From positions 1 through 57,447 of the IMG/VR virus record IMGVR_UViG_3300031566_000035: a stretch of DNA of 57,447 nucleotides. The stretch is one strand, 5' to 3'. Under the pieces are notes generated by a model. That model saw nothing but the letters and a program-made list of their open reading frames with translations, had not been told where the DNA came from and made no database searches. The translations under genes and the position numbers were made by a program. Positions 25,701 through 41,407 of the stretch are shown here, in pieces; the first letter of the stretch is position 1; each line of letters starts with the position of its first letter. This DNA is from a virus (Duplodnaviria > Caudoviricetes).

Positions 25701-25913
25701 ATGTTAAAATTTATAAAAAACTTATTTAAAGGTAAAAAGCAGCAATGCAATTTACCTGTTGTTAGCGGTAGTGCTTGGGATTTGCCTGATGGCGTTTACC
25801 AAGTTGGAGTTGATAAAGCAGCTAAAGGAAGTAAAGACTATAGCTGCCGTGTATGGATGAAAAAGGGAATAAGTGGAGAAATGATAATTGTAGCGGAGGA
25901 GCATTACCGCTAA
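25701..25913 (+). CDS. Cassette hypothetical protein
   Basis: Crosses GTT 25761, stops at TAAC; last unit of array 1. Confidence 0.7.
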   Translation: MLKFIKNLFKGKKQQCNLPVVSGSAWDLPDGVYQVGVDKAAKGSKDYSCRVWMKKGISGEMIIVAEEHYR

Positions 25914-25965
25914 CTATGTTATATAGTTACTTAATTGTTATTAATTTAAAAATCAAATAATTATG
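25909..25965. repeat. Array-terminal site, copy 1 (57-bp direct repeat)
   Basis: Identical to 29002-29058; core AACTATGTTATATAGTT. Confidence 0.9.
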
Positions 25966-26187
25966 ATTGAATATATTTCAAATACTGAAAAATTTATGAG
26001 TAGTTATAATTTATTATTGCAGAAAGTGAAAGAAAGGTGGGTCCGGGCCGATTGCAAAAGAACAGGGATTAATGAAACGAAAGTTAGTAGAATAAAAAAC
26101 GGGCAATTTGATATTTTAACATTAATAGAAATGGCTTCTGTGTGTAATCTTGAAATGGATTGCGATATTAAAGAAATTTGGCATTAA
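25963..26187 (+). CDS. XRE/Cro-like HTH protein
   Basis: RADCKRTGINETKVSRIKNG...TLIEMA helix-turn-helix pattern. Confidence 0.65.
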   Translation: MIEYISNTEKFMSSYNLLLQKVKERWVRADCKRTGINETKVSRIKNGQFDILTLIEMASVCNLEMDCDIKEIWH

Positions 26188-26219
26188 AGAAAAATAGAAG
26201 AAATAACAAAAATTTATAT

Positions 26220-26315
26220 ATGAAAAGGATACAAAGAAAAAGGACAAAAGGTTGGAGGATGCCAGATAATACTATTTTTGTTGGCAGACCTACAAAATGG
26301 GGAAATCCGAAATGA
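26220..26315 (+). pseudogene. Truncated DUF4326-like gene
   Basis: MKRIQRKRTKGWRMPDNTIFVGRPTKWGNP then stop; this is the typical N-terminus of that family. Confidence 0.7.
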
Positions 26316-26461
26316 GAAAAAAGGGACGTATTTATATTGGAATTTTCGAGAATTGCATAAATTATGAAAATGGATATTGCAAAGAAAAAGGCATTGTTTT
26401 GATAAGAAAAGACAAGGTTTGCCATACTTGCAGGGATTTTAAGAAGATTAAAAAATAATAG

Positions 26462-26641
26462 ATGAAAAAGAAAGTAATATTAACGTTTAAAGCAGAATAT
26501 ATTTTAGAAGCCAAAGATGAGGATTCTATGAATATTCTTGATGAATGGGTAGAAGAGCTTGATATGACAACAAGTAAAATTAGTAATGTAACAGGCTCAA
26601 TAAATAGAATCCGAGTTGATAAGAAAATTTTAAAGAAATGA
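26462..26641 (+). CDS. 59-aa hypothetical protein
   Basis: MKKKVILTFKAEYILEAKDE... open frame. Confidence 0.55.
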   Translation: MKKKVILTFKAEYILEAKDEDSMNILDEWVEELDMTTSKISNVTGSINRIRVDKKILKK

Positions 26642-26674
26642 TAGTAGATGAATTACCATAAAATTTAAGATAAA

Positions 26675-26935
26675 ATGGAAAAAACAACAAAATTTAAAAT
26701 CAGGGAAGGTATTAAACTACCTAAAAAAGAATCTTATCGCAAATACCCATTTTCAGATATGGAAATCGGAGATTCGTTTATTGTTGGCAAGTATTCAAGA
26801 TATTTGATGACCAACTGTTTAAATGCAGCCAGAAATTGGGCAAAACAATCTGATAGAAATTGGGAATTTGCAGCCAGAAAAATAGAATATGAAAAATCAG
26901 GGACTTACACAATTGGGATTTGGAGGGTTTCTTAA
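26675..26935 (+). CDS. Small putative DNA-binding protein
   Basis: RKYPFSDMEIGDSF...IWRV motif common in phages. Confidence 0.7.
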   Translation: MEKTTKFKIREGIKLPKKESYRKYPFSDMEIGDSFIVGKYSRYLMTNCLNAARNWAKQSDRNWEFAARKIEYEKSGTYTIGIWRVS

Positions 26936-26961
26936 TGAAAAACTATTTAATGTAATGGATT

Positions 26962-27366
26962 ATGGATTCTAAAACAATCAAAAAATATTCAAAAAAAACC
27001 GTCCCGCAATTAATAAAAATTGCAACACTGCATTTTAATAAATTTATCAGGGAAAGGGACAAGGATTTTGGATGTGTCTCATGTCAATCAAAAGTAAATC
27101 AGGCTGGACATTTTTATTCCGGTGGTCATTATTCAGCCCTTAGATTCAATCAGAACAATGTACATGGACAATGTACAAGATGCAATCTGTACCTTTCTGG
27201 AAACCTTAACGAATACCGAAAAAATATTGTTAAAAGGATAGGTGAAAACGGACTTGTTAAACTTGATGAACTCGCTGCATATTATAAAAGGAACGGGTTT
27301 AAATGGGATAGATTTACACTTATAAAGATCATAGAGGAACATAAATTATTAAACAAAAAAAAATGA
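26962..27366 (+). CDS. ninG: NinG/Rap-like recombination endonuclease
   Basis: FNKFIRERD..CVSC..AGHF...LRFN..NVHGQC..CN..LSGN. Confidence 0.88.
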   Translation: MDSKTIKKYSKKTVPQLIKIATLHFNKFIRERDKDFGCVSCQSKVNQAGHFYSGGHYSALRFNQNNVHGQCTRCNLYLSGNLNEYRKNIVKRIGENGLVKLDELAAYYKRNGFKWDRFTLIKIIEEHKLLNKKK

Positions 27367-27494
27367 CAAACGAAAAAATATTGGAATTATTGTGGGAGCT
27401 AAAAACGGAAGATAAATTTTATTTTATTTCTTACGGGATTGATCTCTTTAGTGGTGGATCACGTGAATTAAGTCGAAGAAATCGAAAAATTACT

Positions 27495-27625
27495 TGATAT
27501 TAACTAAATAATTACTATCTTTATGGTGCAGTTCGGTCATGAAAAAAATAAATCCCATATCGTTAACATCGCCTAATCCGAATATTTCGGGACCGGACTG
27601 CCTTTGTTCTCGGTATGGGTATTTT
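27495..27625 (+). promoter_or_regulatory. Promoter followed by structured leader with interleaved inverted repeats
   Basis: TTGATA...TATCTTTA, then GCAGTTCGGTC/GACCGGACTGC and CCCATATCG/CGGTATGGG. Confidence 0.55.
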
Positions 27626-27663
27626 ATTATGAAAGAAATTTGAAAATATAAAATTTAATCAAA

Positions 27664-28332
27664 ATGGGACTAAATAAATCAAAAGGTAATATGTATGGGT
27701 TTATCACCCACACTTGGAACACTGTTAAAGGTGCTTGTTTTCACGATTGCAGTTATTGTTATATGAAAAGATGGGGTAAACAAAACCCTATTAGATTTGA
27801 TGAAAAGGAATTAAAAACAGATTTAGGAATTGGAAATTTTATATTTGTTGGAAGTAGTTGTGATATGTGGGCTAAAAATATTCCTGATGAATGGATAATT
27901 AAGACATTGAAAAAATGCGAAATTTCTGATAATAAATACCTTTTCCAAACCAAAAACCCAGATAGAATACTTCATTTTATGGACGCATGTATTATTAGTG
28001 ATAAATCTATTGCATGTACTACAATTGAAAGTGATAAATTTTATCCTGAAATAATGAAAAATTCACCACATCCAGTACTTAGAAGTTTATCAATGGAAGA
28101 AATAAGCGGTGCGATTAAAACATTTGTAACAATCGAACCGATAATGGATTTTAATTTAAAAAATTTAATACAAATAATAAAACGATGTAATCCAGAACAG
28201 GTAAATATCGGTGCTGATTCTGGAAATAACAATCTACCAGAACCACCAAAAGAAAAAGTTTTAGAACTTATTTCTGAACTTCAAAAATTCACAATTGTAC
28301 ACAAAAAATCTAATTTGAACAGGCTTTTTTAA
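27664..28332 (+). CDS. DUF5131 / phage Gp37-Gp68 family radical-SAM-like protein
   Basis: TWN...GACFHDCSYCY, FVGSSCD, QTKNP, TIEP motifs. Confidence 0.8.
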   Translation: MGLNKSKGNMYGFITHTWNTVKGACFHDCSYCYMKRWGKQNPIRFDEKELKTDLGIGNFIFVGSSCDMWAKNIPDEWIIKTLKKCEISDNKYLFQTKNPDRILHFMDACIISDKSIACTTIESDKFYPEIMKNSPHPVLRSLSMEEISGAIKTFVTIEPIMDFNLKNLIQIIKRCNPEQVNIGADSGNNNLPEPPKEKVLELISELQKFTIVHKKSNLNRLF

Positions 28333-28354
28333 TTTACAATATACAGTAGAACAA

Positions 28355-28576
28355 ATGCAGGAATTAGACCATATTCCAACCGATGAAATTGTTCAGGATA
28401 TAAAAGATACTGAGCGTGAGGTAAAGGATTACAATGATGAACTTGAAATATTAATGAGAAATCCACCTCAAAATAAATTGCGTATTTATATGATAGAAGG
28501 TCATATTTTACAACACAAAGAACTGATAGAAAAACTCAATAAAATAATAAGGTTCCGTGAAGGCGTGCGGGAATAA
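28355..28576 (+). CDS. Hypothetical protein, cassette remnant
   Basis: Followed by the TTTTATTTGTTTATAAC cassette end. Confidence 0.6.
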   Translation: MQELDHIPTDEIVQDIKDTEREVKDYNDELEILMRNPPQNKLRIYMIEGHILQHKELIEKLNKIIRFREGVRE

Positions 28577-28590
28577 TTTTATTTGTTTAT

Positions 28591-29021
28591 AACGTCTTGA
28601 TGTATGAACTGATTTTTTAACGATTAAATAAACTAAAATGAAAAATATAAAGATAAATTTTGAAGGTAGAAACGAAGGTTGTGCTTTTTTTGCTTTGTAC
28701 GCAGGACTTAGAATGTACAACGAATATAAGCACGAACAACACAAGGGTAAAGATTCATTCAGTACCGCAGGAGCAGAAGCCTATGGCATCATGGAAGACC
28801 TTAGATATAGCCACCCTAAAGAATATGAAGAAGCAAAAAAAGAGTACGATAGTGAGTTGAAAAATTTGATTATACATCTTGTTAGCCAACAAAGCGAACA
28901 GTTAATTAATTTTTTAACATGGCATGATTCGGAGAACTTAGGTTGCTTACCTGACGGAATTGAAGGCAGAGTGGATGAATATCTAAAATTAATTAATTGT
29001 GGCTAACTATGTTATATAGTT
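28591..29021. mobile_element. Cassette array 2 (one complete unit plus terminal site)
   Basis: AAC 28591 GATGTATGAACTGATTTTTTAAC pairs with GTTGAAAAATTTGATTATACATC-TT-GTT 28881; body GTTAGCCA...TGGCTAAC 29007. Confidence 0.85.
28638..29006 (+). CDS. Cassette hypothetical protein
   Basis: Crosses GTT 28881, stops at TAAC. Confidence 0.7.
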   Translation: MKNIKINFEGRNEGCAFFALYAGLRMYNEYKHEQHKGKDSFSTAGAEAYGIMEDLRYSHPKEYEEAKKEYDSELKNLIIHLVSQQSEQLINFLTWHDSENLGCLPDGIEGRVDEYLKLINCG

Positions 29022-29058
29022 ACTTAATTGTTATTAATTTAAAAATCAAATAATTATG
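29002..29058. repeat. Array-terminal site, copy 2
   Basis: Identical to 25909-25965; supplies the leader and ATG of the replication gene. Confidence 0.9.
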
Positions 29059-29778
29059 GCAAAAAGATTTACTGATACAAATAAATACAAAAAACCCTTT
29101 ATAAGGGGCTTACAAGGGGCTTATAAGGTGCTTTGGGATTATATTTGCCTTGATTGCGACCATGCTGGAATTTGGATTGTCGATTTTGATGTAGCACAAA
29201 TATATGTAGGCAAAGAACCGTATATGAAAGTTAATAAATTAGATGCATTAAAATTTTTTAATACAGGAGAAATAAGAATTATAGAAATTAATGATGGATC
29301 AAAATGGTTTATACCTTCATTTATAGAATTTCAATATGGATTTTTAAATGAACAAAATCGAGCGCATAATTCTGTTATTAAAATTTTATATAAATATGGA
29401 TTTTATAAAAATAAGGGGCTTGCAAGCCCCTTACAAGGACGTAAAGATAAAGATAAAGATAAAGATAAAGATAAAGATAAAGATAAGAAGGAGAAATTTG
29501 AATTATTTTGGGAACAGTATCATATGATGACTAAACTTTTGAAATCAGATAAATCACCTACTGAAAAACACTGGATGAAACTTTCTTACGATGAAATGGA
29601 TAAGGCAATTAGTAATATTCAGCCTTATTACAATTCCTTAAGGCTTATAAATAATAAAAAACCAGTTAAAAAGGCGAGGACTTATTTATCCGATAAAAAT
29701 TTCAACGATGAATTTATTGAACCAATTAAAAAATCAAATCCACAAATATTCGAGATCGACCCAAAATTTTCACAATGA
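29056..29778 (+). CDS. Replication initiator / replisome organiser
   Basis: MAKRFTDT...LW.YI...CDHAGIW N-terminus, DKDKDK linker, FELFW..Y C-terminal domain; upstream of helicase. Confidence 0.8.
   Translation: MAKRFTDTNKYKKPFIRGLQGAYKVLWDYICLDCDHAGIWIVDFDVAQIYVGKEPYMKVNKLDALKFFNTGEIRIIEINDGSKWFIPSFIEFQYGFLNEQNRAHNSVIKILYKYGFYKNKGLASPLQGRKDKDKDKDKDKDKDKKEKFELFWEQYHMMTKLLKSDKSPTEKHWMKLSYDEMDKAISNIQPYYNSLRLINNKKPVKKARTYLSDKNFNDEFIEPIKKSNPQIFEIDPKFSQ
29413..29486. repeat. Putative replication origin elements within initiator gene
   Basis: Palindrome AAGGGGCTTGCAAGCCCCTT then about seven TAAAGA units; related AGGGGCTTA repeats at 29104-29128. Confidence 0.6.
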
Positions 29779-30095
29779 ACTCTATAATTTCAGAACGGGG
29801 AAAAGAATTGGCGGAAAGCCAATTGTTATTTAAAAAAAGGATAAGAAATGAAGCAAGGAGTGGATTGTCTGAAAATTTTATTAAATTTTTGATAGGTTAC
29901 CATGATTTTACTGAAAAATATATTTCAGAAGTTGAAATGGAAAATTTAAGATTACATTTAAAGGTAAATAAACTTAATAAAAAATCAGAGGCAGGTGTAG
30001 ATGCTGTTTCATGGCTTCAGTCAATTTTAATAAAACAACTGAAAAAATTCAACAATGAACTTAGAGCAATTAAAGAAAGAAAGACAAAAGGTTAA
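29775..30095 (+). CDS. Hypothetical protein
   Basis: Between initiator and helicase. Confidence 0.6.
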   Translation: MNSIISERGKELAESQLLFKKRIRNEARSGLSENFIKFLIGYHDFTEKYISEVEMENLRLHLKVNKLNKKSEAGVDAVSWLQSILIKQLKKFNNELRAIKERKTKG

Positions 30096-31014
30096 AGACG
30101 CCATCTATCTTGAAGACTGCAAAAAGTCAATGATGGATGGTTTCCGCAATGGATATGAAATAGGGAAAACAACACATTTTTATGAAATCGACCGTCATTT
30201 CAGGTGGCTGAAACAGAATGTCATAATATTCGGCGGTTATGGAAATCACGGTAAATCAACTTTTTTATATCAATTATTGCTTTTACGGGCATTGAACAAT
30301 GGAGAAAAATTTGCAATATTTTCACCGGAAAATATGCCTGCGGACTTTTTTTACAACGATCTTATTCATACATTGATCGGAAAATCGACCATACTTCAAC
30401 ACTCAAACAGGATGACGCAGTTGGAATATGAAAAAGCAATGGAATTTATCAATGAACATTTCTTTTTGATTTACCCTGAAAACGATGAACCAAGTCCTGT
30501 ATATGTAAACGAAAGGTTCAAAGAAGCAATCGAAAAGCATAAAATTGACGGGTGCATAACAGACCCTTTCAATCAGCTTGACAGGGACTGGGAAAAATCC
30601 GGTAGGGACGATAGGTATATAAGCGATTATTTGAACAAAGAAAAGAGATTTTCACAATCTAACAATGTTTATAAAATAACGGTCGTCCATTGCCATTCGA
30701 GGGTTTCGTTCGATGAATCAGGTATGTTAAAAGAACCGAATGTTTATAGTATTTCAGGTGGCTCAATGTGGAGCAATAAAGCAGACGATATTTTATTTAT
30801 TCACAGGCCTTACAAGCATTCAGACCCAATGAACACCTCAACAACTTTCATCTCGGACAAAATAAAAAAACAAAGGATTTGCGGATTTCCGGGAAGCGTA
30901 ATATTGGATTTTAATATTTTAGAAAATAGATATTATGTAAACGGGAACAGCCCATTTTCAAAATTTGATAATTTTATGAATGATAAAATTGAAAAGTTTC
31001 AAAGAAAAATATAA
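30055..31014 (+). CDS. SF4 (DnaB/Twinkle-like) replicative helicase
   Basis: Walker A GGYGNHGKST, FSPEN, ITDPFN, ISGGSMWSNKAD. Confidence 0.85.
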   Translation: MNLEQLKKERQKVKDAIYLEDCKKSMMDGFRNGYEIGKTTHFYEIDRHFRWLKQNVIIFGGYGNHGKSTFLYQLLLLRALNNGEKFAIFSPENMPADFFYNDLIHTLIGKSTILQHSNRMTQLEYEKAMEFINEHFFLIYPENDEPSPVYVNERFKEAIEKHKIDGCITDPFNQLDRDWEKSGRDDRYISDYLNKEKRFSQSNNVYKITVVHCHSRVSFDESGMLKEPNVYSISGGSMWSNKADDILFIHRPYKHSDPMNTSTTFISDKIKKQRICGFPGSVILDFNILENRYYVNGNSPFSKFDNFMNDKIEKFQRKI

Positions 31015-31018
31015 CAAT

Positions 31019-31216
31019 ATGAAAATTACTAAAAAAATGAAAAGAGAATTACTTCAAGATTACGTGAAAAAATATGAAGCTCTTGAGAATATATCCTTTA
31101 AACTTTATAGGCTTGGATATGAGGATTTATGTAAAGGCATTATCGAAGAAATGGCTGGATTGAAATTATTAATAGAATGCTGTGAAAATATTAATGAGGA
31201 CGAAAAAAACAAATAA
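31019..31216 (+). CDS. Hypothetical protein
   Basis: Track ORF 30980..31216; likely later start. Confidence 0.5.
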   Translation: MKITKKMKRELLQDYVKKYEALENISFKLYRLGYEDLCKGIIEEMAGLKLLIECCENINEDEKNK

Positions 31217-31622
31217 ACCAACATTGGACATAGGCTTTTTCAAAGAAATCCCATTATATCCGACAAGATTTTCAGTCGATATTTGGGTTTGTAATAATCA
31301 AGATAATCTTGCAAAATATTTCAAAAAAAGATATGGTGCAAGCGTTGAATATTACAAAGAAGAAGTAGCCCCAAATCAAGTTGCAAATTTACATTCGACC
31401 ATTGAATCAGAATTAAATGGGGAGGTAAGAATAGTAATGAATGTCATTGATTGGGATTTAAATGTAATTGGACATGAATTGATTCATATAATTTATCATT
31501 TAGATAAAATTTGTAATTTAGGCATAGATTTCCATTGTCAAGAATGGGTAAGTTATTTGTTCGAATATTTATTCGAACGTTGTAAAAATGATGGCAGTTT
31601 TAAATCGTGCGATTCAATATAA
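31182..31622 (+). CDS. HExxH-containing hypothetical protein
   Basis: IGHELIH...E motif. Confidence 0.65.
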   Translation: MKILMRTKKTNKPTLDIGFFKEIPLYPTRFSVDIWVCNNQDNLAKYFKKRYGASVEYYKEEVAPNQVANLHSTIESELNGEVRIVMNVIDWDLNVIGHELIHIIYHLDKICNLGIDFHCQEWVSYLFEYLFERCKNDGSFKSCDSI

Positions 31623-31965
31623 AAACAACAATAATATGAACGAAGCATTGAGAACACGAATAGACGAACATTGTCAAATGGTAAAATGTGGCGTAAAGCC
31701 ATTAAGTTTATTGACATATCAAGCAAGGTATCACGAAGAAGTAATAAATATCATAAAAGATTACGATCTTTATTATTCATCTGAACCAAATGGCAAAGGA
31801 TGGCTGACAATTTATATTTATAAAAACAAAGCAATTGGATTCCTGATCCCGGAATTGCCAAAAACCCCTAAAAAACCAATCGAACATGCTTTAGTTGGAT
31901 TGTTTTTGGGATATGGCATAGATTCGATTTGTGAATTTATATTTAAAAAATATAATTTATTTTGA
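31588..31965 (+). CDS. Hypothetical protein (GLFLGY motif)
   Basis: GVKPL...H...GLFLGY. Confidence 0.65.
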   Translation: MMAVLNRAIQYKNNNNMNEALRTRIDEHCQMVKCGVKPLSLLTYQARYHEEVINIIKDYDLYYSSEPNGKGWLTIYIYKNKAIGFLIPELPKTPKKPIEHALVGLFLGYGIDSICEFIFKKYNLF

Positions 31966-31993
31966 ACGGCATATAAAATACTGGCAAGAAACG

Positions 31994-32374
31994 ATGGATG
32001 AAATTTATATAGCTCAAATGGATTACGGATATGGCAAGAGTGATAAAAGTTGGTTGCCTTGCACTAAAGATGATGAATTTATTTACTTTAAGAGAGACGA
32101 AAATGGCGTACACGCTTGGCACTGTAATAAAGTATCATTAAGTGACCATAGATTACTTGATTTGAAACCACAAGCTTTTAAAATTATGTGGGAATATGCG
32201 ATAATACCAATTAGCTTTAAAGATTACAATGAGTATGTTGATTGTTTAAATGATTATGGAAAAGAGGGGTGGATATTTGGAGCAATGATACGGACTTACG
32301 AAGATTCACCAATGATAGGAATTACGACACACGACTATGTATGCAGACGTGCGAATAATTTTTATTGTTTATAA
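31994..32374 (+). CDS. Hypothetical protein with DUF4177-like C-terminal half
   Basis: MWEY...LNDYGKEGW; ends in the TTTTTATTGTTTATAAT cassette end. Confidence 0.55.
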   Translation: MDEIYIAQMDYGYGKSDKSWLPCTKDDEFIYFKRDENGVHAWHCNKVSLSDHRLLDLKPQAFKIMWEYAIIPISFKDYNEYVDCLNDYGKEGWIFGAMIRTYEDSPMIGITTHDYVCRRANNFYCL

Positions 32375-32465
32375 TCTTCGATGCGTATGTTGAGTGAACC
32401 CGATGTCGCATTTTAGCGACCCGTGAGTTCACGAAGAAACATCCATAACGTAAAAATACAGAAAA

Positions 32466-32795
32466 ATGAAAACAGAAAAAGAAAAATTAATTGATGCTCA
32501 AAAAGAGTATATTAAATTTTTAGATAAATACATAAGTGGAGTTTCAATGTATTTACATGTTCACGGACAAATTCAAAATGATAAAGATGTTAAGAAAGGA
32601 AAACTTATGAGGGATAAAATATCAGAATTAGAAAAATCAATTAATCCTCAGAATGAACCCGCTGGGCATCGAAGATTAGAGGATAATAAGGTTCAAAAAA
32701 AGCCTTGTCCTCATCCGGGAATCATGTGTTTTGACACAATGAAACCTGTTAAATGTTGGAAATGTGATAAATTATTAAGTAAAAAAGGCGATTGA
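32466..32795 (+). CDS. Hypothetical protein with Cys-rich C-terminus
   Basis: 109 aa ORF. Confidence 0.65.
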   Translation: MKTEKEKLIDAQKEYIKFLDKYISGVSMYLHVHGQIQNDKDVKKGKLMRDKISELEKSINPQNEPAGHRRLEDNKVQKKPCPHPGIMCFDTMKPVKCWKCDKLLSKKGD

Positions 32796-32876
32796 ACCGT
32801 TCGTTTTTACGATATTAACCATACCGCTTGTTAGCGTTTCGTTTTTGAGCGTTGGCGGTAGAAAACTTAAAATATC

Positions 32877-33215
32877 ATGGGAGAAACAGCAGACATGATA
32901 CTTGATGGTATCTTAGATGAACAAACAGGTGAATATATCGGTGAGGCGGTAGGATATCCACGGACAATGCAGAAAGGATGTTATAACTCAATTAAAAAAC
33001 GAAAGCCTAAACGAAACATTAAATATGCGATGAAAGGCGAAAGTTTAGGAGGGTTGCATTTAGTGGGAAAGAACGCTATAATCGAAAATGTAGGTGAATG
33101 TGAAATTGTGGACTATATAGGGAAAAGAGGTCGTAAAAGATATGTTTTGATTGATAATGAAGGTAAAGAACATAGAGTTGAATTTAGCAGTATGACGCTG
33201 TGCGTTGGCAAATGA
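32877..33215 (+). CDS. Cassette hypothetical protein
   Basis: MGETADMILDG...GEYIGE..GYPR; fills body 32830-33223. Confidence 0.75.
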   Translation: MGETADMILDGILDEQTGEYIGEAVGYPRTMQKGCYNSIKKRKPKRNIKYAMKGESLGGLHLVGKNAIIENVGECEIVDYIGKRGRKRYVLIDNEGKEHRVEFSSMTLCVGK

Positions 33216-33488: not shown

Positions 33489-33792
33489 CGGTGTTGACTT
33501 GGTGTTTACGTGTACTTGCGGCGAAAAAATAAACTTATAATATGGTTGCTAATGTTAGTATAAGTGGCGTTTTTTCTATGCCATTTATACATTGTTACCT
33601 GACTGGTACGATTTATAAGCCTAAAACTTTGATTTAAGCACACAATAAGTAACTATTTATTTTTTAGCGTTGGCAAATTAATGAGGCACGAATTAAAATA
33701 TTTACAAAATAATTAAAATAATTTGCTTTTATAGTTGATAATTACAAAATAAGTTATATATTTGTAGTGTAAGAAACAAACAAATAGAAATT

Positions 33793-34080
33793 ATGAAAAG
33801 AAATGTGTGGATACCAAAAATGACAAAAGGAAGATTAGAAAGATTATTAGCCAAATCAAAGTTAACTAATGATGAAAAAGAAGATTTGTTAGACTACAAG
33901 TATTTTTTACTTAATCAAAAAGTTTGTGCTTATGAGAAAAAATTAATGGATGCTGTAAGTGTTAATCAAGCAGAAGAGTTTTGCGATATTAGAGGTTGTA
34001 TTTTAGTTCCTAAAAATATGTTTTGGTTAACTAACATAAATCATTTAACTAACGGATTTAAAAGCGAATACTATTTATAA
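33793..34080 (+). CDS. Hypothetical protein in promoter-bearing cassette
   Basis: Preceded by a TATATTTG -7 box near 33757. Confidence 0.7.
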   Translation: MKRNVWIPKMTKGRLERLLAKSKLTNDEKEDLLDYKYFLLNQKVCAYEKKLMDAVSVNQAEEFCDIRGCILVPKNMFWLTNINHLTNGFKSEYYL

Positions 34081-34268
34081 TGGCATACATATACTACAAT
34101 AAAGAATTAAACCAATACAGATTGTTTGGAAGCCTTCCTGTAATGTGTAAGACTTGCGAATTAGATTACACGCATTTACAATACGCATTTAGAAATAATA
34201 AAACGGAATACGAAAACGACACTTTAAAGATTATTAAGGTTACGCTTGAAAGGGGTGGAAAAAAATAA
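34080..34268 (+). CDS. Small putative HTH regulator
   Basis: FGSLPVMC...LDYTHLQYAF helix pattern; translationally coupled. Confidence 0.6.
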   Translation: MAYIYYNKELNQYRLFGSLPVMCKTCELDYTHLQYAFRNNKTEYENDTLKIIKVTLERGGKK

Positions 34269-34474
34269 ATAGTTACGTGTAGATAAAAACAGGTTTTAGA
34301 ATTAAGCACGAACCTAAGTACTTGCAGGTACGAAAAAGTATATGATTTCGAGCCGATAAATGGCACGAAACTACAATAACAGAATAAAGTAAATTAATAT
34401 TATAAACTAAGAAGATAGCACCAACACGGCTTGAATTATATACGGTGTTGTGCATCTTTTAAAAATGCGGAATT

Positions 34475-34789
34475 ATGCAAGGAAAATACCTTATAAACAC
34501 AGATGAATGGTTTGTTGCACCAAATGGTAATAGCTACAAAGCAGCGTGGGGAAATGTTGAAATAATAGAAGACACTTCTTTAGGACTAAAAACTAACAGA
34601 AATAGTACAAATTGGTATGCTAGAGTGGGGAGCGAGGACAACCACATAATAATAGCAGGTTGCCAAATACACTACGCTGTTAGATGCGAGAATAAACCTA
34701 ATACAGAACCGAGCGAAGAATGGCAAGCAGATGCAGCCAATGGGCTAAAAGAATATAAAGCACCTGCCCGAATATATATAGCTGAGTAG
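34475..34789 (+). CDS. Cassette hypothetical protein
   Basis: Fills body 34447-34809. Confidence 0.75.
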   Translation: MQGKYLINTDEWFVAPNGNSYKAAWGNVEIIEDTSLGLKTNRNSTNWYARVGSEDNHIIIAGCQIHYAVRCENKPNTEPSEEWQADAANGLKEYKAPARIYIAE

Positions 34790-34956
34790 CATTTTTTATT
34801 GTGCACAACAACGCTAAGCTGAAATTCGTTTCAATGAATTTTAGCGACCGTTATCAATCGTATGACGGAGGCTGAGCTTGTCGAAGCCGAGTAATATGAT
34901 TGACAGGACAGACAAAAAGTTTTTAAATGCAGATTTTTATATAAATTTAAAAAAAA

Positions 34957-35142
34957 ATGAAAATAAACATAACTTGTTCATGTGGAAGGGTATTCGATGT
35001 TATAGGTAATGGGATCAGGTTCATTCATCATGGAAAAGAAAACAAAATAATGTTAAAAGATGAAATAATACGTTGCAAATGCGGATCGGATAACCTTAAT
35101 TTTACGAGTAATTTAAAAATAAAAAAATCGGATTACCCATAA
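34957..35142 (+). CDS. Zinc-ribbon protein
   Basis: CSCG and CKCG. Confidence 0.6.
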   Translation: MKINITCSCGRVFDVIGNGIRFIHHGKENKIMLKDEIIRCKCGSDNLNFTSNLKIKKSDYP

Positions 35143-35245
35143 GTAAAGAGCTTTATTTATTTTGATTTTGATTAAATATTTATTATATTTGTATCTTGTT
35201 TCATGTTTATATATTTAGATTAGATGTTTGGTTAGTAAATTGGTT

Positions 35246-35276
35246 AAAAAGGGCTATTTCTCGATAGCCTTTTTTT
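35246..35276 (+). terminator. Intrinsic terminator-like hairpin
   Basis: AAAAAGGGCTAT-ttctcg-ATAGCCTTTTTTT. Confidence 0.7.
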
Positions 35277-35317
35277 ATTATACAAAACCCGATCCTGATC
35301 TTATAAGAAAATAAATT

Positions 35318-35572
35318 ATGGTTATATCACACATACCGCTAAAGCTAATATTAGTTGAAGACCCAAAGGTTGGAGGTTACACATCTTTTTTTGCGCAATT
35401 CCCAGAAATTTTGGCTCAGGGTGAAACAGAAGATGAGGCAACTGAAAATTTGTTTAAAACGGTTAGTATTGTTTTTAAACACAAGGGTGGTATTGGACAT
35501 GGTGTTAAGAAGAGTGAATATAATGTTATAGAAAAAGACATAAATCTTGACACCTGTGAATGTCGGAAATAA
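35318..35572 (+). CDS. HicB-like antitoxin domain protein
   Basis: EDPKVGGYTSFFAQFPEILAQGETEDEA..NL. Confidence 0.8.
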   Translation: MVISHIPLKLILVEDPKVGGYTSFFAQFPEILAQGETEDEATENLFKTVSIVFKHKGGIGHGVKKSEYNVIEKDINLDTCECRK

Positions 35573-35768
35573 TCCTTTAATTACAAGTCATGGTTTACAC
35601 GAATGGATTTTAAATGCGTTAATATCGACTTTATTTACCTAAAACAAAATAGAACGAATATAAACAATATACATAAATACCTGAAATAAAATATAATAAA
35701 AGGAATAAAAATAAAAAATAAAATATTTAGAATATTTTTATTATCTTAGCATTATAAAATCTCCGAAC

Positions 35769-36251
35769 ATGATAAAAATATTAAAAAACGAAAAAACAGA
35801 AAATGGTAATTTTTTTATATTTTTCAATACCGAAACAAAGGAAAAGGCAAGGATAAAAACAGACAATACATCTGTATTGGCGTTATGCGAACTAATAAAC
35901 GGGGAGCGGATAAATTTAAAACAGGCAGAATGCTTTAATCTTTTGGATTATAAAAGCATCTTATTAGAGAAAAAAGAGACACGTGTACAGTCGGACGTAA
36001 TGGACATATCATATTTATTGGTGAGTATAAACGGGAAAGATTACCTTAAAATCTTCCATAAAGGACAGGATATGCTTTCTTTCAGCTCCGCACCGATCAA
36101 AAACATAAAATCCTTTATGGCTTATACGGAAAAAAAACTACAAGATGTCGAATGGGGCTTGATTGATGAGCGATCCGCTATTATAGAATCATCGGAATCC
36201 ATCCTTTCTGGAATAAGAAAAGCCAATGGTTTTTATTCAATAAAAAAATAA
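35769..36251 (+). CDS. Hypothetical protein
   Basis: 160 aa ORF. Confidence 0.65.
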   Translation: MIKILKNEKTENGNFFIFFNTETKEKARIKTDNTSVLALCELINGERINLKQAECFNLLDYKSILLEKKETRVQSDVMDISYLLVSINGKDYLKIFHKGQDMLSFSSAPIKNIKSFMAYTEKKLQDVEWGLIDERSAIIESSESILSGIRKANGFYSIKK

Positions 36252-36604
36252 TTTATTTATATCCGTATTTATTATTTATAACTGCATTTACCTTTTATTT
36301 ATAGTGCCATTTATGCTTTATTTATGGCGCCATTTATCGTTTATTTATGGTTGCATTTATATATGGCGCATTAGCCCAATATAGATATATAGACACAGCG
36401 CATATGTATTAATATATATAAGAACCTTTAATTGCTATAAATAATGTACATATGTTATAATGCTTCAACTATTTGTAATTAATATAAACAACATATATAA
36501 AATATTGATAATGAAATAATTTGAAATGAAGCTTAAAAAAACGCTTGACAAATTTCTTAATTTGCTGTAGATTAGCAGAAAATTATTAACCAAAAACTTG
36601 CAAA

Positions 36605-36910
36605 ATGAAAACGATTAAATCAAACAAATTAAATTTAAAAACCATGAAAAACTTGAAAAATGCAATTACAGACAATCTAATTAATTATTATGCGAATTCA
36701 ATTAATTTATTCGATTTTGTCGAAAATAATATTTCGCCATTCATTGAAATTTCTGAAGAATCAAAAGAAACAATACGATTGATAATATCGCAAAGCCAAA
36801 GAGGGTGGTATGCAATTGAATGCGATGAGGAAGGGCCCACAAAAGAACAGGACGAAGAAATGGACGCCTATATAGAATCGGTAACGGCCGAAATTTTAAA
36901 TTCACTATAA
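36605..36910 (+). CDS. Acidic putative early protein
   Basis: After TTGACA at 36545; acidic C-terminus. Confidence 0.65.
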   Translation: MKTIKSNKLNLKTMKNLKNAITDNLINYYANSINLFDFVENNISPFIEISEESKETIRLIISQSQRGWYAIECDEEGPTKEQDEEMDAYIESVTAEILNSL

Positions 36911-36921
36911 AAAATAAAACC

Positions 36922-37173
36922 ATGAAATTCACAAAAGATCACTACAAGTTAATCAAGGACAGGTTTATAAATCTTGGAATTGATGCAATTATAGAACACC
37001 AAGCATATTGCTTGCTCAATAATTATTCAAAAACAAGATTTGTGTGGGGGGTTTATTGGGAAGCCGAGGATGAAAATTCAAGGTTGGATACATCCAATTA
37101 TTCGGACATACACATCGAAACGGCCATAACAACGGCAATAAAAGAACTATTAAAAGATAAATACCTTTATTAA
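36922..37173 (+). CDS. Hypothetical early protein
   Basis: 83 aa with AAAACCATG leader. Confidence 0.7.
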   Translation: MKFTKDHYKLIKDRFINLGIDAIIEHQAYCLLNNYSKTRFVWGVYWEAEDENSRLDTSNYSDIHIETAITTAIKELLKDKYLY

Positions 37174-37241
37174 ATCGCTTTAACACCCCTGCCCCACGGG
37201 CAGTATTTCAAACAAAAATCAATTAAAATAAACATAACATC

Positions 37242-37466
37242 ATGAAAACATCGATAAAAGAAGTATTTGAAAGCGGAAGTTGGATGATCCAACGAATCCA
37301 TCAAGGAACAAGCAACAAGACAAGGCGCATTGATGCAAAGCGAAGATTCCCAGAAGCTGATGGAAAGAATTCATTTTCAGAATGGTGCAGCACTGCATAC
37401 GCCGATAGGTTGGCGAGAGAACATTATGGGAAAAATACCAATGATTTTATGTGTTTTTGCTATTAA
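37242..37466 (+). CDS. Hypothetical early protein
   Basis: 74 aa ORF. Confidence 0.7.
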   Translation: MKTSIKEVFESGSWMIQRIHQGTSNKTRRIDAKRRFPEADGKNSFSEWCSTAYADRLAREHYGKNTNDFMCFCY

Positions 37467-37486
37467 ATAATTTAAAAACTTGCAAA

Positions 37487-37693
37487 ATGAAAAAACTAAC
37501 AAAAAAAGAATTAGCGGAATGGTATGTTAGCGCTCATTCCGACTGCGGACACGTATTATATTTTTCAGGGGATCCCCGTTCAGCGGTAACCGAAGATTAT
37601 TTTTTTAAACACCTGATGAAAAAAAGGAGAGGGGAATTGGTCGAATTGATCTATAACCATTCAGACGAGGGTAGGGCGTTTTTAAACAAATAA
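37487..37693 (+). CDS. Hypothetical early protein
   Basis: Leader AAAAACTTGCAAAATG is shared with ORF 36605. Confidence 0.65.
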   Translation: MKKLTKKELAEWYVSAHSDCGHVLYFSGDPRSAVTEDYFFKHLMKKRRGELVELIYNHSDEGRAFLNK

Positions 37694-37761
37694 TCAAAAA
37701 AAATGAAAGAAATTTCAACAAATAATTAGGATTTTAAACAAATATTAAATAACTTAGCATT

Positions 37762-38541
37762 ATGGAAACCAAAGTATTACATAATAAATTCAAATATATA
37801 TTGGAAGGATTGGCCCCTGCCGGAAAGGAAGAGGAAGGGCATCTGTACATTGAAGTTGACGGGCTTACATATGACGTTACAGCGAAGCCCGACATATACC
37901 ATGTAATGGCGTACGATAGGCCAAGGAATACAATAACGGTGGATACATGGCTGCCCGTGTTCCCCGGGTTTTACGGGACTATTTTCGATCACGGCGAAGC
38001 CATCGACATTGAACGCGAAAACATTGAACAGGACAGAAAGGATAAAGGGTTATCACCACCGCTCACACAAAAAGAAATCGAAAGCATTGACTTCGATATA
38101 AATTCAAGGATGAATGACATTGCAGCGAAATGTTGTGGAATAATGGAAATGGAACTATCAGGCTTCGTACACTCAATAGAATTCCAGGGAGTCCATAGCC
38201 CACGCTCCTACAACTTCACGAACGATCAGATCAATTGCCGTATCACGTTCGACATGCAGGCGGCCAGGAAATACATAACGGATGACATTGAAGCATTCAA
38301 GGCCCACCTAAAGGAACGGTACACATCAAGGGATGGGTTTATCCCATTGCAATCAAGCGACGCAAAAGATTGGCAATTCTACGATGTGCTAAGGGACGAA
38401 CACAAAGCGGGCGAAGTACTCCAGTTTATCTGCAACCAACAGGGCATAACAGATGAAGACCTGCAAGAGGCCTCAATGATGTACATCAGCGCCAATAACT
38501 ACGATTACGAGAAGCACGAGATAATCATTAACAACAAGTGA
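37762..38541 (+). CDS. Acidic conserved phage hypothetical protein
   Basis: FPGFY, SPRSYNFTND, YTSRDGF motifs; visibly higher GC than flanks. Confidence 0.75.
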   Translation: METKVLHNKFKYILEGLAPAGKEEEGHLYIEVDGLTYDVTAKPDIYHVMAYDRPRNTITVDTWLPVFPGFYGTIFDHGEAIDIERENIEQDRKDKGLSPPLTQKEIESIDFDINSRMNDIAAKCCGIMEMELSGFVHSIEFQGVHSPRSYNFTNDQINCRITFDMQAARKYITDDIEAFKAHLKERYTSRDGFIPLQSSDAKDWQFYDVLRDEHKAGEVLQFICNQQGITDEDLQEASMMYISANNYDYEKHEIIINNK

Positions 38542-38561
38542 ATATGTAAGCTAAACAATTT

Positions 38562-38596
38562 AAAACCCCTCTCAATAACAACAGAGGGGTTTTTTT
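38562..38596 (+). terminator. Intrinsic terminator
   Basis: AAAACCCCTCT...AGAGGGGTTTTTTT. Confidence 0.8.
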
Positions 38597-38971
38597 ATGC
38601 AATAACACACCAAACCAATACAAAAGAAGCATACTTACAGTAAAGCCCTGTCTATACTATCCGGATCAAAACAAACCAAACTATCCAAAGGCTAAAACAA
38701 ACCCAAAGAAGATCAAAGCAAACCCCATAACTTGTGGAATAAAGGGTTAATGGGCAATTGTCTTTTTTAAATCCTTTTCATGTGCGCAAGAATAACGCCC
38801 TGTAATGAACGATAACACACTTATAGTATCCATACATAGGATAATATTAAAGACCTGTTAGGTGCGCTTATATGAAGCTATATGGGTAGATTATCAGGGG
38901 GGCTGTTGAATGGTTAAAGGCAGACTTATTACTATCATTATAACTTATTGATTAATAGTGCATTAACACCT

Positions 38972-38999
38972 ACTTAACATAATGGTAATTATAGGACAA
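38972..38999 (-). other. dif-like XerCD recombination site
   Basis: Minus strand TTGTCCTATAA-TTACCA-TTATGTTAAGT, 11-6-11 layout with near-canonical XerD arm, in a long non-coding region. Confidence 0.8.
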
Positions 39000-39484
39000 A
39001 TAAATAAATATAATATACTGACACAGTGATGGTTATAAATACGTCATAAATCTTTAACATCTTTTTTGCGTTTTCGTTTTGCCCGATAGGGCCTTTTCCC
39101 TCCTATAATTACCAAACACAAAACCTAAAATAACTTTTTGGATTCGTTATAAATTACGGATATAGTTGTATATGTTACAAAAATGTAGTATTATTGCCGA
39201 TAGAACACAACAAAGATGTAGTATTGATAATTTTAAGGGGTCATTCCGCCTTGATGATGACATTAATTTTTATTGTTGGTAATGGAAAAGAATATGAATA
39301 ATAAGGGAGTAAGGCACGGGTAAGAGTCCCGTAGAAATAGGTGAAGTGTCGATAGGGCAATCAGCCAACTGCAATCCTACCCTTATTATTTATTGTTGTA
39401 TGTCTTTTTAAATTGTAGATAACGCACCGTGCGCGGAGTGAAACGGGATACAATGCGGACTGTTGATTAAAATTACAAAAGGCG

Positions 39485-39799
39485 ATGGACAAGGAAAGTA
39501 GATACGAATTACAAAAAATTGACTGCAACTGTAACGATTGCTTTTTTATGGTTAGGGATTTTGATACTTATAAAAAATGGGGATCATTTCACATGGATTT
39601 GCAATTAAAAGAATTTGAACATAAAAAAGAGAACGGAGAAATAAGACCTAATGCGCAATTTCAATTTGATAAAAGCACTTTACTTCAATATGGGAAATGC
39701 TCAAAATTAGGCAAAGGCATTTCGTTTATACCTAACGTATGTCAAATTGAGACTCAAGAGTGCTTCAAACATAGGCGAGTGCGTTTTAATGCATTTTAA
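39485..39799 (+). CDS. Cys-rich hypothetical protein
   Basis: DCNCNDC...C...C...CF. Confidence 0.7.
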   Translation: MDKESRYELQKIDCNCNDCFFMVRDFDTYKKWGSFHMDLQLKEFEHKKENGEIRPNAQFQFDKSTLLQYGKCSKLGKGISFIPNVCQIETQECFKHRRVRFNAF

Positions 39800-39829
39800 A
39801 CATTGTTGTAAATCTTTTAAATACGGAAT

Positions 39830-40066
39830 ATGGAACACGAACTTAAAATACTCCCACAATACTTCGAGGAAGTGTGGAGCGAAAACAAAACCTTTGAACT
39901 AAGAGAGGATGACAGAGATTATAAAATAGGTGATACTTTGAGACTACTTGAATTTGACTACGGAACTTATACAGGTAGAGAATGCAACCGAACAATATTA
40001 TACATACTTAGAGATGCTGACCAATACGGACTGAAAGAAGGTTTTGTGATACTAGCAATGAAGTAG
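39830..40066 (+). CDS. ASCH/DUF3850 family protein
   Basis: HELKILPQYF...KTFELR.DDRDYKIGD.L.L.E. Confidence 0.85.
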   Translation: MEHELKILPQYFEEVWSENKTFELREDDRDYKIGDTLRLLEFDYGTYTGRECNRTILYILRDADQYGLKEGFVILAMK

Positions 40067-40203
40067 TATTTTATTGTTTACAACGTTGAATGCAAGGTGT
40101 CGTGGCTGCCTGATAAAAGCTACATAGTTATAAATTTAAACAAATATTGATATGAAAAACGAAACTTTAAAACCCCAACAGCCATGCACTATATAACATA
40201 GTT

Positions 40204-40485
40204 ATGGGTAGTACTTATAGAATGCCAGAAAGTTTCTCTGAATATGAAGGCGAAGAGATTATGTCAAACTTTGACGGGCGTGTAGTAGAAGAAAGTGCAA
40301 AAGCAATTAAAGGTAAGGAATTATTTAGTAGGTATGCTGGTTGGAACTTTAACGGAAAAGTTTGGTGGCAGAATGATAAATGGTTATGTGAAGTGTGGTG
40401 TTATAGAAGCTGGAGAGAAACTTTCGTTTGTGAAACGCCAAAAGAATTAATGGAAGAGATAAGCTCTGAATATGGGTACGAATAG
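40204..40485 (+). CDS. Cassette hypothetical protein
   Basis: Fills body 40201-40498. Confidence 0.7.
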   Translation: MGSTYRMPESFSEYEGEEIMSNFDGRVVEESAKAIKGKELFSRYAGWNFNGKVWWQNDKWLCEVWCYRSWRETFVCETPKELMEEISSEYGYE

Positions 40486-40576
40486 TATTACCCATAACGG
40501 ACAGCGGTATGATTCGTTTGCTCCTCGAATCACCACGAAATTAGGAGCGTAGTATTAACTTAACAATTTACGAGCG

Positions 40577-40924
40577 ATGGATTTTGGATATGCTATACAG
40601 ATTTTAAGAGAAAAATTAGTTGATGATAGTTATGAACTTACATTAGCTGTTGAACAAAAAGATGAAGAAGTGCAGGAACGGCAAAAAGAACGCTTAGCTA
40701 TATTGCAGGATGCGATGAATGCGTTGGCTAAACCTTCGAGCATACCACAAGCAAATGAATTATTACCGCATGTTAGCGGTAGTAATAATTTTAAGAAGAT
40801 ACTTAAAAAAGCTAACAGTGAAATATGGCACCTAACTAATGATGAAATAAGAAGTTGGGAAAAAGATGGAAGTATAGAACGTGGTGATATTTTGTACAAA
40901 GTTGTAACAGATACACTGTACTAA
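40577..40924 (+). CDS. Cassette hypothetical protein
   Basis: Crosses GTT 40772 (LLPHVSGS). Confidence 0.7.
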   Translation: MDFGYAIQILREKLVDDSYELTLAVEQKDEEVQERQKERLAILQDAMNALAKPSSIPQANELLPHVSGSNNFKKILKKANSEIWHLTNDEIRSWEKDGSIERGDILYKVVTDTLY

Positions 40925-41006
40925 TTATTACCGCTAACGGTTTGTGTATGAAAAGTACGGGATTAACCCTAAAAATTATAAACGAGTACAAATAAAATTT
41001 ACGATT

Positions 41007-41228
41007 ATGAAAACAACAAATGAATTAAGAGACGAATTAGCAATGAAAATGCCAAAAGAAGCATTGCCAACGCTTAACGCACAAGAAACTATGGAGAAAG
41101 TTGCAAAAGAATTTGATATTGATGTTGACTTTAATGATGAGATAAGCCTTATTGAATTTAGCCTAAAATACCAAGCTGCAATAAGGTATAAGTATGCTGA
41201 TGCAATGATTGAAGCAAGAGCTAAGTAA
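41007..41228 (+). CDS. Hypothetical protein inside an attC-like loop
   Basis: LRDELAM...YKYADAMIEAR motif. Confidence 0.75.
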   Translation: MKTTNELRDELAMKMPKEALPTLNAQETMEKVAKEFDIDVDFNDEISLIEFSLKYQAAIRYKYADAMIEARAK

Positions 41229-41407
41229 ATTTTATTGCTTCAATTACGCAGCAAAGTAGATACGAGAGATACAGTAGTATTTTTTATACACTTTGTTACC
41301 GTGTCGTTGCTTCTCCTTAAAAGATGTGACGCTCAAAGATTGCTACTAATTAATTTTAGAGCAATGCACGGTAACTATGTTATATAGTTCACTTTTATTG
41401 CAATAAA

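Follow-up and report, generated by a model that had tools for sequence, protein, structure and literature searches.

Cassette arrays and their terminal site

The window analysed here, that is, the whole 57,447-nucleotide (nt) stretch of the IMG/VR virus record IMGVR_UViG_3300031566_000035 (Duplodnaviria; Caudoviricetes), codes for a terminase, a portal and a tape-measure protein, together with a lambda-like recombination set consisting of an exonuclease (phrog_298), NinB/Orf and NinG/Rap, and also for a C5 methyltransferase and an HNH endonuclease, all recognized in Pfam and PHROG scans. The subject of this study is a short sequence of this Bacteroidota phage genome, designated X, that recurs at the ends of arrays of gene cassettes and that may be the counterpart of attI, the site of integrons at which new cassettes join an array.

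The 17-bp motif AACTATGTTATATAGTT occurs exactly at 25912-25928, 29005-29021 and 41373-41389 in a search of the whole window, always on the plus strand, at the three places where a first-pass annotation of this DNA had reported it; that annotation had missed a fourth, mirror-image copy on the minus strand at 40187-40203, which differs by one mismatch. When up to three mismatches are allowed, eight matches are found against 0.57 expected, a number reached in none of 100 shuffles. Three of the eight are the exact sites read on the opposite strand, the motif being a near-palindrome, and a match at 33747 with three mismatches looks like chance. The first copy, X1 (25911-25929, plus strand), reads TAACTATGTTATATAGTTA, in which a spacer of 5 nt separates a putative crossover box, TAAC, from the arm TATATAGTTA, and it lies 33 nt 5' of the ATG of a gene for a helix-turn-helix (HTH) protein. 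X2 (29004-29022, plus strand) is the same 19-mer and stands 5' of open reading frame (ORF) 29056-29778, a gene of the replication module without a family match. X3 (41372-41389, plus strand) reads TAACTATGTTATATAGTT and lies 18 nt 5' of ORF 41408-41623, while X4 (40187-40204, minus strand) agrees in 17 of 18 bases, its TAAC being, on the opposite strand, the GTTA of the left arm of the cassette unit at 40201-40498. Extended by one base on each side, the motif becomes a 7-5-7 palindrome, TAACTAT-GTTAT-ATAGTTA, whose predicted fold under DNA parameters is only a 7-bp stem with a 5-nt loop (-3.0 kcal/mol), in keeping with the earlier remark that the site forms no long hairpin. The alignment of X sites holds no downstream partner arm, as befits a simple double-stranded site.

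All four copies of X abut the TAAC end of a cassette unit. Such units have the form GTTA+N6 ... N6'+TAAC, with complementary arms that are specific to each unit, and they occupy the plus strand between 16.8 and 41.4 kb. A loose threshold yields 40 arm pairs in the whole window, of which 21 were kept as the unit series; the other 19 lie outside the arrays, are alternative partners of an arm already paired, or have arms of A and T only. A strict rule, which demands at least 9 contiguous complementary bases no more than 700 nt apart, gives 20 units in 16501-42000 and none in the rest of the window, and only 1 when the arrangement is reversed; applied to 200 shuffles, it returns a mean of 1.0 units and a maximum of 4. 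At each of the three plus-strand sites the initial TAAC of X is also the last four bases of such an inverted-repeat unit, so the proposal that each array ends right after a body held in every case. The last unit of array 1 (25761-25914, plus strand; GTTAGCGGTA ... TACCGCTAAC) has arms complementary at 10 of 10 positions and covers the C-terminal part of ORF 25701-25913. That of array 2 (28881-29007, plus strand; GTTAGCCAAC ... TGTGGCTAAC) pairs over 8 contiguous positions and lies inside ORF 28638-29006, and that of array 4 (41295-41375, plus strand; GTTACCGTGT ... GCACGGTAAC) is an ORF-less hairpin of 81 nt paired at 9 of 10 positions. The first unit of array 4 (40201-40498, plus strand; GTTATGGGTA ... 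TACCCATAAC) encloses ORF 40204-40485, and it is the left arm of this unit that abuts X4.

Array 1 (16783-25914, plus strand) consists of GTTA..TAAC units alternating with TAAC..GTTA hairpin junctions; it holds 17 TAAC-type junctions (16 internal ones plus one at 17083) before X1, and all of its ORFs are on the plus strand. Array 2 (28590-29007, plus strand) has a single internal TAAC junction, at 28590, before X2, and array 4 (40187-41389, plus strand) comprises three units between inverted copies of the site, X4 on the left and X3 on the right. A pattern catalogue of 14-43 kb contains 20 internal TAAC junctions and three in which TAAC is followed by X (TATGTTATATAGTT). The array-terminal position assigned to the motif is thereby upheld, in that no further TAAC-type site follows X in arrays 1, 2 and 4; two left-type half sites still lie 3' of the third copy, inside ORF 41408-41623. 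Sequence flanking the units is conserved as well, with TTTTTTATAnCAnnT directly preceding the GTTA of the left arm and G-N6-7-G(C/T)TATG directly following the TAAC of the right arm, and between a TAAC and the GTTA that comes after it the sequence is in turn a hairpin. ORFs are found inside units, inside hairpin junctions, or running from a junction across GTTA into a unit. Because no plus-strand ORF placed against the units crosses a TAAC, this box is a strict gene boundary in the arrays.

The genes that follow the first two copies of X share more than the site. A 57-nt block that starts with the final two bases of a cassette arm and continues through X and a leader of 33 nt to the ATG of the following ORF is found at 25909-25965 and again, 100% identical, at 29002-29058, both on the plus strand, exactly as the first-pass annotation had it. 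Its label for the first of the two genes stands, since the product of 25963-26187 (plus strand, directly 3' of X1) is of Cro/C1 type and matches Pfam HTH_26 with 22.7 bits against a cut-off of 22. The label of replication initiator for ORF 29056-29778 is not confirmed, the ORF having matches to 0 Pfam and 0 PHROG families; it adjoins a DnaB_C helicase gene and has iteron-like repeats.

Several smaller features accompany the arrays. A second small, conserved hairpin, GTGCG..GAAATA..GCAC followed by AAAA, lies between several of the internal junctions and the next ATG at 17100-17125, 24095-24125 and 25130-25150. Several ORFs continue through the left half site, which then encodes the recurring peptide LP(C/V/H)VSGS (16008-16041, 25745-25775 and 40747-40780), so that a DNA repeat imposes a protein motif on unrelated small proteins. 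DNA methyltransferase genes occur as array cassettes in the window (19258-20153) and in a related metagenome contig, L165 (reverse strand, 2354-3046).

Relatives of the site and of the hairpins in phages

Searching metagenome contigs for the 18-mer form of the site returned 41 loci, three of them relevant (L140, L160 and L165); the remaining loci looked like chance or like a giant-virus repeat. L160 is identical to L140 over their overlap. In both L140 and L165, X lies 33-35 nt 5' of a homologue of the HTH gene, and the two contigs match with 98.2% identity for 1765 nt from the T of TAAC onward, whereas no resemblance is seen in the 2.7-3 kb 5' of X; this is the only close pair, and its whole upstream region differs. 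The last cassette of L140 is GTTAGGCGTT...AACGCCTAAC, and that of L165, which adjoins X and holds a methyltransferase-like ORF, is GTTACCCACT...TGTGGGTAAC. Six different cassette arms, those at X1, X2, X3, X4, L140 and L165, thus meet X at the same base, and a complementary GTTA arm is present for all six. The 16 bases TAACTATGTTATATAG are invariant in all six sites, although in the adjoining HTH region the window shares only about 72% identity with L140/L165, a pattern that suggests that X is under selection. It is very likely that X is a site-specific junction.

L140 and L165 preserve the order of X and HTH gene. A looser version of it occurs in L343, the one relative of the HTH protein found in IMG/VR (51% identical); there, the TAAC that closes a unit with arms of 14 nt lies 42 nt 5' of the HTH start. 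The DnaB-like helicase has in IMG/VR only relatives of at most 36% identity, and a blastn comparison of 25000-32900 with GenBank phages gave a single 70-nt match, to Cellulophaga phage phi13:2. The exact 19-mer was found in IMG/VR only in two AT-rich contigs, L001 and L002, which were judged unrelated and to share it by chance. These two contigs carry, at 2290-2440 and 6240-6380 respectively, 6-7 tandem 21-nt units TTATATAGTTAACTTAAATTG 5' of a MutS-like gene, an arrangement also present in L141, L148, L150 and L167; the contigs with this tandem repeat look like giant viruses.

The hairpins that separate the units belong to a large family. Their internal 16-mer TAACGGTTTGGCTATG is found in at least 118 IMG/VR contigs, with 129 occurrences in those loci, from which 62 distinct compact elements were picked by pattern. 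An alignment of 30 of the IMG/VR elements with three window sites (33 in all) gave, with RNAalifold, a consensus fold of an outer TAACG/TGTTA stem, an unpaired spacer and an inner CTATG/TATAG stem. Four pairs covary, and in three of them both sides have changed with the pair kept in 14-16 of the 33 sequences. Because three positions are G.U, in 22-32 of the 33 sequences, one strand folds better than its complement. The family has the architecture of integron attC sites, with R boxes, an unpaired spacer, L boxes and a variable loop, and, as in attC-flanked cassettes, the R box 5' of a cassette is complementary to the R box 3' of the same cassette (20 units). No Rfam family matched the repeats of the window and of 15 bacterial loci, and many hairpin copies in other contigs are followed by T-runs. 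In phages the motif strand is also that of the ORFs, as seen in the window, in 10 of 10 IMG/VR loci chosen for having at least two motif copies (L014, L020, L026, L035, L037, L047, L056, L061, L091 and L126) and, by the covariance matches described below, in Polaribacter phage P12002L; the location of X at the 3' end of the arrays relative to the genes, as first proposed, is borne out by this polarity.

A covariance model built from the 33-element alignment, R1, is too narrow for the diverged sites of the window, hence the use of the pattern catalogue there. It matches phage P12002L five times, on the gene strand and beside DNA methyltransferase genes. In the part of their paper that concerns this phage, Qi et al. 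2023 (PMC9892861) describe a cluster of attC sites lacking an integron integrase (CALIN) with two methyltransferase genes and two predicted attC sites, one of which recombined with attI1 under IntI1. The two published sites, attC1 and attC2, may lie among the R1 matches. Among short TAAC..GTTA palindromes in the other phage loci, none is X-like outside the present lineage.

Bacteroidota chromosomal arrays and their recombinases

The same 16-mer TAACGGTTTGGCTATG is found in at least 120 bacterial genome stretches, mostly of Bacteroidota. A Bacteroidales chromosome, G001, has 74 copies of the motif on one strand, about 68 of them in a single array of about 71 kb (G001:C1:2556175-2628584; loci L190, L244 and L299). 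Just past the end of this array, after the last TAAC, lies a gene for a 383-aa tyrosine recombinase whose stop codon faces the array; the last cassette, GTTACCGTTT...AAACGGTAAC, is followed by TAGTATATATGTACACG, and the recombinase stop comes about 70 nt later. A recombinase gene is located past the same side of the crossover box in the arrays of G001 and of a further genome, G003, and in L299, L300, L318, L325 and L329 R1 has matches 3' of the recombinase gene, on the strand opposite to it. Another of these recombinases, the G002 protein, passes the model NF040815 'tyrosine recombinase/integron integrase' with 230.4 bits against a cut-off of 220; in a sample of one family, 31 of the 121 genomes have a homologue of it.

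Inspection by eye of 25 recombinase loci showed that in at least 17 the motif strand carries YAAC, 4-6 nt and then a palindrome with arms of 9-12 nt, and in most loci the recombinase stop follows 10-16 nt after the palindrome. That these palindromes are intrinsic terminators of the recombinase gene was ruled out on account of their 0-2 nt loops and the lack of a T-run; they look like protein-binding sites.

The arm ATATAGTTA of X is present in four of the 25 recombinase loci, L313 (in G002), L314, L315 and L321, from four genomes of a Flavobacteriaceae family sample that carry AAC-N6-ATATAGTTA. In an ungapped alignment of four phage X sites with the four bacterial sites, AAC-N6-ATATAGT is invariant; the G002 site reads ACAAC-GTATG-TATATAGTTACC and the phage site GCTAAC-TATGT-TATATAGTTAC. 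Local alignment of X with the 80 nt before the recombinase stops gave scores of 14, 13, 11 and 10. Six of the 25 recombinase-proximal segments score at least 10 and two at least 13, against seven and none of 944 control windows from the same loci (maximum 11), which suggests that the likeness of X to these sites exceeds chance. The reverse scan, of phage loci for arms of the bacterial palindromes, was noisy, with 250 matches against 135-183 in controls. A close look-alike of the motif is present beside the recombinase gene at four loci; the exact motif was found beside none and is absent from 401 genomes of the Flavobacteriaceae family sample.

An attI-like reading and its alternatives

In integrons the bottom strand of a folded attC site is cut in its first R box at AA/C, the slash marking the point of cleavage, and the attI-specific sequence is located 3' of this cut on the same strand. 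X occupies the attI position of a Bacteroidota-type cassette system, and there is about an even chance that it is the terminal double-stranded recombination site, equivalent to attI, of an integron-type platform common to Bacteroidota phages and their hosts. X would then consist of the crossover box TAA/C, a 5-nt spacer and a single arm, TATATAGTTA(C), with no partner arm to fold against, unlike the internal sites, which would be attC-like hairpins of the coding strand with the order nnnnTAAC, unpaired spacer, CTATG, variable stem-loop, TATAG, spacer and GTTAnnnn. A cassette would extend from one TAA/C to the next TAA/C, an arrangement from which it follows that the arm 3' of a gene pairs with the arm 5' of it, that TAAC is a strict gene boundary and that the terminal site comes directly after TAAC. 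The bacterial arrays fit this geometry, as do the phage arrays except in the strand of their ORFs. If a circular cassette, its hairpin folded, recombined with X, it would come to lie directly 5' of X, at the 3' end of the array and before the leader of the core gene. The enzyme would be a host recombinase of Xer/IntI-like type acting in trans, since the window has no tyrosine recombinase and any activity at X would need a host enzyme. Catalysis in trans, crossover at TAA/C, present-day insertion at X and variability polarised toward X are what we infer from this arrangement.

Comparison with known systems, class 1 attI1 and Vibrio attIA among them, shows both likenesses and differences. Like attI, X stands at the end of a cassette array on that side of the crossover box where new cassettes join, shares the crossover triplet with the cassette sites and has different cassettes fused to it at one fixed base; it is also a linear double-stranded site, not a folded hairpin, and its sequence is lineage-specific, not universal. 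Unlike attI, it has no integrase gene beside it or in the window, is present in three to four copies per genome and not one, and, with respect to the cassette ORFs, closes the array on its 3' side, ahead of core phage genes that have a conserved leader. The likeness to phage CALINs, as represented by P12002L (PMC9892861), consists in the same hairpin family, the lack of a phage integrase and the methyltransferase cassettes (19300-20139 in the window and the last cassette of L165). The sections of that paper devoted to CALINs of virulent phages report two predicted sites in P12002L and describe no attI-like site; the window goes beyond the P12002L cluster in its more than 20 junctions, three to four arrays, conserved terminal site and bacterial counterpart. 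With the Bacteroidota chromosomal arrays (G001, G003; L313-L335) the phage arrays share the hairpin motif TAACGGTTTGGCTATG and its variants, unit-specific arms and the side of the terminal site, whereas the chromosomal arrays differ in having a recombinase gene, a full-palindrome terminal site and cassette ORFs opposite to the motif strand. The promoter-stem-loop (PeSL) cassettes of T4-type phages (PMC2839356, PMC4122927), for which the portions of these papers that deal with them propose modular shuffling through conserved stem-loops, likewise consist of small accessory ORFs in hyperplastic phage regions divided by conserved stem-loops. PeSL elements, as those portions present them, are promoter-terminator motifs thought to act via homologous recombination, in contrast to the specific arms, fixed junction base and recombinase-linked bacterial counterpart of the window units. 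For the early promoter that a PeSL combines with its terminator-like stem-loop between accessory ORFs, a search of the window with the -7 consensus of Bacteroidota identified no counterpart. A transposon or miniature inverted-repeat transposable element (MITE) with conserved ends was ruled out, the arms differing between units.

A number of observations weigh against the attI equivalence of X. A six-frame search of the whole window for the tyrosine recombinase domain PF00589 gave no match at E<=0.1, by a procedure that detected its positive control in 14 of 14 genomes, and no recombinase was seen among the 30 window ORFs scanned by Pfam or PHROGs. The record may also be incomplete (the CheckV completeness estimate is 64%). 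Its two ends overlap by about 126 nt (1-132 versus 57322-57447, the start being offset by 6 nt), which makes a closed or terminally redundant genome probable despite the IMG/VR class of linear and the 64% estimate. A search for lysogeny found no relatives of the large terminase at E<=1e-60 in 301 genomes, an empty result that shows little, and thus gave no sign of it. The window sites are diverged, and several junctions contain ORFs. No empty X site was seen, the array end of P12002L has no comparable X-like terminal site, and in L343 the position of X is kept with a sequence only partly like it. The window and L140 share a whole TAAC-to-GTTA junction module, 80% identical over 138 nt, between bodies that differ on either side, so that breakpoints between relatives lie at GTTA as well as at TAAC.

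Further such points come from the bacterial side. The exact 16-mer of X is absent from 401 genomes of the Flavobacteriaceae family sample, in which one-mismatch matches number 32 against about 100 for a reversed control. Of the two arms of the bacterial palindrome, X possesses just one. As the noisy scan of phage loci mainly showed, the 10-mer TATATAGTTA is also an ordinary L-box variant (the complement of an L box) in other phage loci, at a spacing of 4 and not 5, so that part of the likeness is a family trait. The bacterial recombinases fall short of the integron integrase model TIGR02249, scoring 187.9 bits (G002) and 178.5 bits (G001) against a cut-off of 265, and each aligns with it in two segments that pass over model positions of about 180-240, the part in which the IntI insertion lies; this insertion is absent from both. 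According to the part of Smyshlyaev et al. 2021 (PMC8138268) that treats the integron-like subgroup, this insertion is not fully conserved there. Bacterial cassette ORFs run opposite to the motif strand in six of six loci (L190, L232, L244, L274, L299 and L300); because this polarity is the reverse of that in phages, the two cassette pools are not simply interchangeable. The attI-like assignment first proposed for the motif is supported in part, by the fixed-base junction, the invariance over 16 nt, the start of homology between L140 and L165, the position at the array end on the recombinase side and the sequence likeness; neither the exact motif at a recombinase gene nor an empty site was found.

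Regardless of any role in recombination, palindromes of 7-5-7 size are typical operators, and X might be an operator or promoter palindrome bound by the Cro/C1-type HTH protein and controlling the HTH gene itself, the replication gene and two more ORFs, its contact with cassette ends being secondary. All four copies do lie 0-33 nt 5' of an ORF start, X1 precedes the HTH gene in an order kept in L140, L165 and L343, and the 57-nt identity spans the whole leader to the ATG. We nonetheless regard this as rather unlikely, for it does not predict six cassette arms fused at one nucleotide, and the bacterial look-alike adjoins a recombinase gene and not an HTH gene. The Bacteroidota -7 consensus is TAnnTTTG, and no copy of it lies within 150 nt of X1 or X3, a weak test given 30 occurrences in the window against about 26 expected; the operator and attI roles are in any case not mutually exclusive. 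A different account holds that the arrays are shuffled by phage-driven homologous recombination at short conserved blocks, in the manner of PeSL cassettes, X being a block of homology beside core genes. The phage has the exonuclease, NinB/Orf and NinG/Rap for this and no site-specific recombinase, which also tells against a site-specific exchange; junction modules are exchanged whole with breakpoints at both TAAC and GTTA, and two identical 57-nt blocks are present. This account leaves unexplained the unit-specific complementary arms, a circular-permutation signature carried by 20 units against a shuffle mean of 1.0, as well as the meeting of unrelated sequence with X at the same base six times and the 71-kb bacterial array of the same hairpins that ends at a tyrosine recombinase gene, and it seems to us fairly improbable.

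X could also be a relic, the collapsed or inverted half of an ordinary hairpin site (an R box, a short spacer and a perfectly complementary L box) with no recombination role today. An R1 alignment of the X region of L165 spans the full hairpin model apart from a deleted loop (10.7 bits, E 3.3), other phage loci use TATATAGTTA as a variant of the L box, X4 sits at the usual place of an ordinary left half site, and P12002L lacks such a terminal site. The relic is decidedly unlikely in view of the 16 nt invariant in six of six sites from lineages only about 72% identical nearby, of its occurrence three to four times in a genome and each time at the end of an array, and of a spacing of N5-6, which is that of recombinase-proximal sites and not the N4 of ordinary half sites; just as little probability attaches to the corresponding origin, in which a deletion or inversion left X at an array end, to be kept by descent or by overlap with the leader. 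Very improbable, finally, is the view that the hairpin family acts as RNA stem-loops of a polycistronic mRNA, in termination, processing or stability, with X as an RNA or transcription boundary between accessory and core genes. The hairpins are indeed on the coding strand in the window and in 10 of 10 IMG/VR loci, the three conserved G.U positions favour the coding-strand fold, and T-runs follow many copies in other contigs; against this, the same strand is non-coding in the bacterial arrays (six of six loci), unit-specific arms enclosing whole genes would not be expected, no Rfam family matches, and X folds weakly at -3.0 kcal/mol.

Integrons are generally regarded as rare in Bacteroidota or as missing from them. 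The relevant section of one survey (PMC9024848) states that only cassette-less integrases had been reported earlier from Bacteroidetes, plus one complete integron in Salinibacter, and phage-borne attC clusters are known, from the passages of PMC9892861 that deal with them, as a few small examples only. A literature search of limited coverage found no description of the hairpin family, of the chromosomal arrays or of an integrase-less attI-like site in a phage. If X works as an attI, a large group of marine and gut-related phages has a dedicated, site-specific means of exchanging accessory genes (methyltransferases and small ORFs), one that depends on a host enzyme, and Bacteroidota hold a large and overlooked reservoir of cassette arrays; X and a hairpin, with a G002-type recombinase, would then form a concrete substrate pair. 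The phage, in short, may borrow a host enzyme to swap accessory genes. More tentative, and to our minds doubtful though possible, is the wider proposition that Bacteroidota phages carry complete integrase-less platforms, several per genome, each made up of an attI-like site and an attC-like array, and employ, in the course of infection, a non-canonical Xer/IntI-like host recombinase with which accessory genes are acquired, lost and rearranged, while the same hairpins build large chromosomal arrays (about 68 cassettes in G001) missed by standard criteria, with two cassette pools on one enzyme. Such arrays would escape standard integron criteria because their recombinase lacks the IntI insertion, and the pools of phage and host would be separate because phage gene polarity is opposite to bacterial polarity.

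Some further features of the window lie apart from the arrays or within their neighbouring genes. ORF 29056-29778 contains 3.2 copies of an 11-nt repeat, TTATAAGGGGC, at 29099-29133, an inverted copy 310 nt on at 29411-29438, and at 29442-29486 a TAAAGA run of 7.5 copies that is read as a KD repeat in the protein, a set of repeats such as an origin situated within an initiator gene would show. A 23-nt unit, TTATTTATGACTGCATTTATCCT, is repeated in tandem about four times at 36272-36360, in an AT-rich, gene-poor stretch, and is likewise iteron-like. On the minus strand at 14480-14526, an intergenic, tRNA-like fragment of T-arm and acceptor, GGAATCGAACCTGC, which came up only through a weak match to an Rfam family unrelated to it (E 0.082), could be the remnant of an attachment site.

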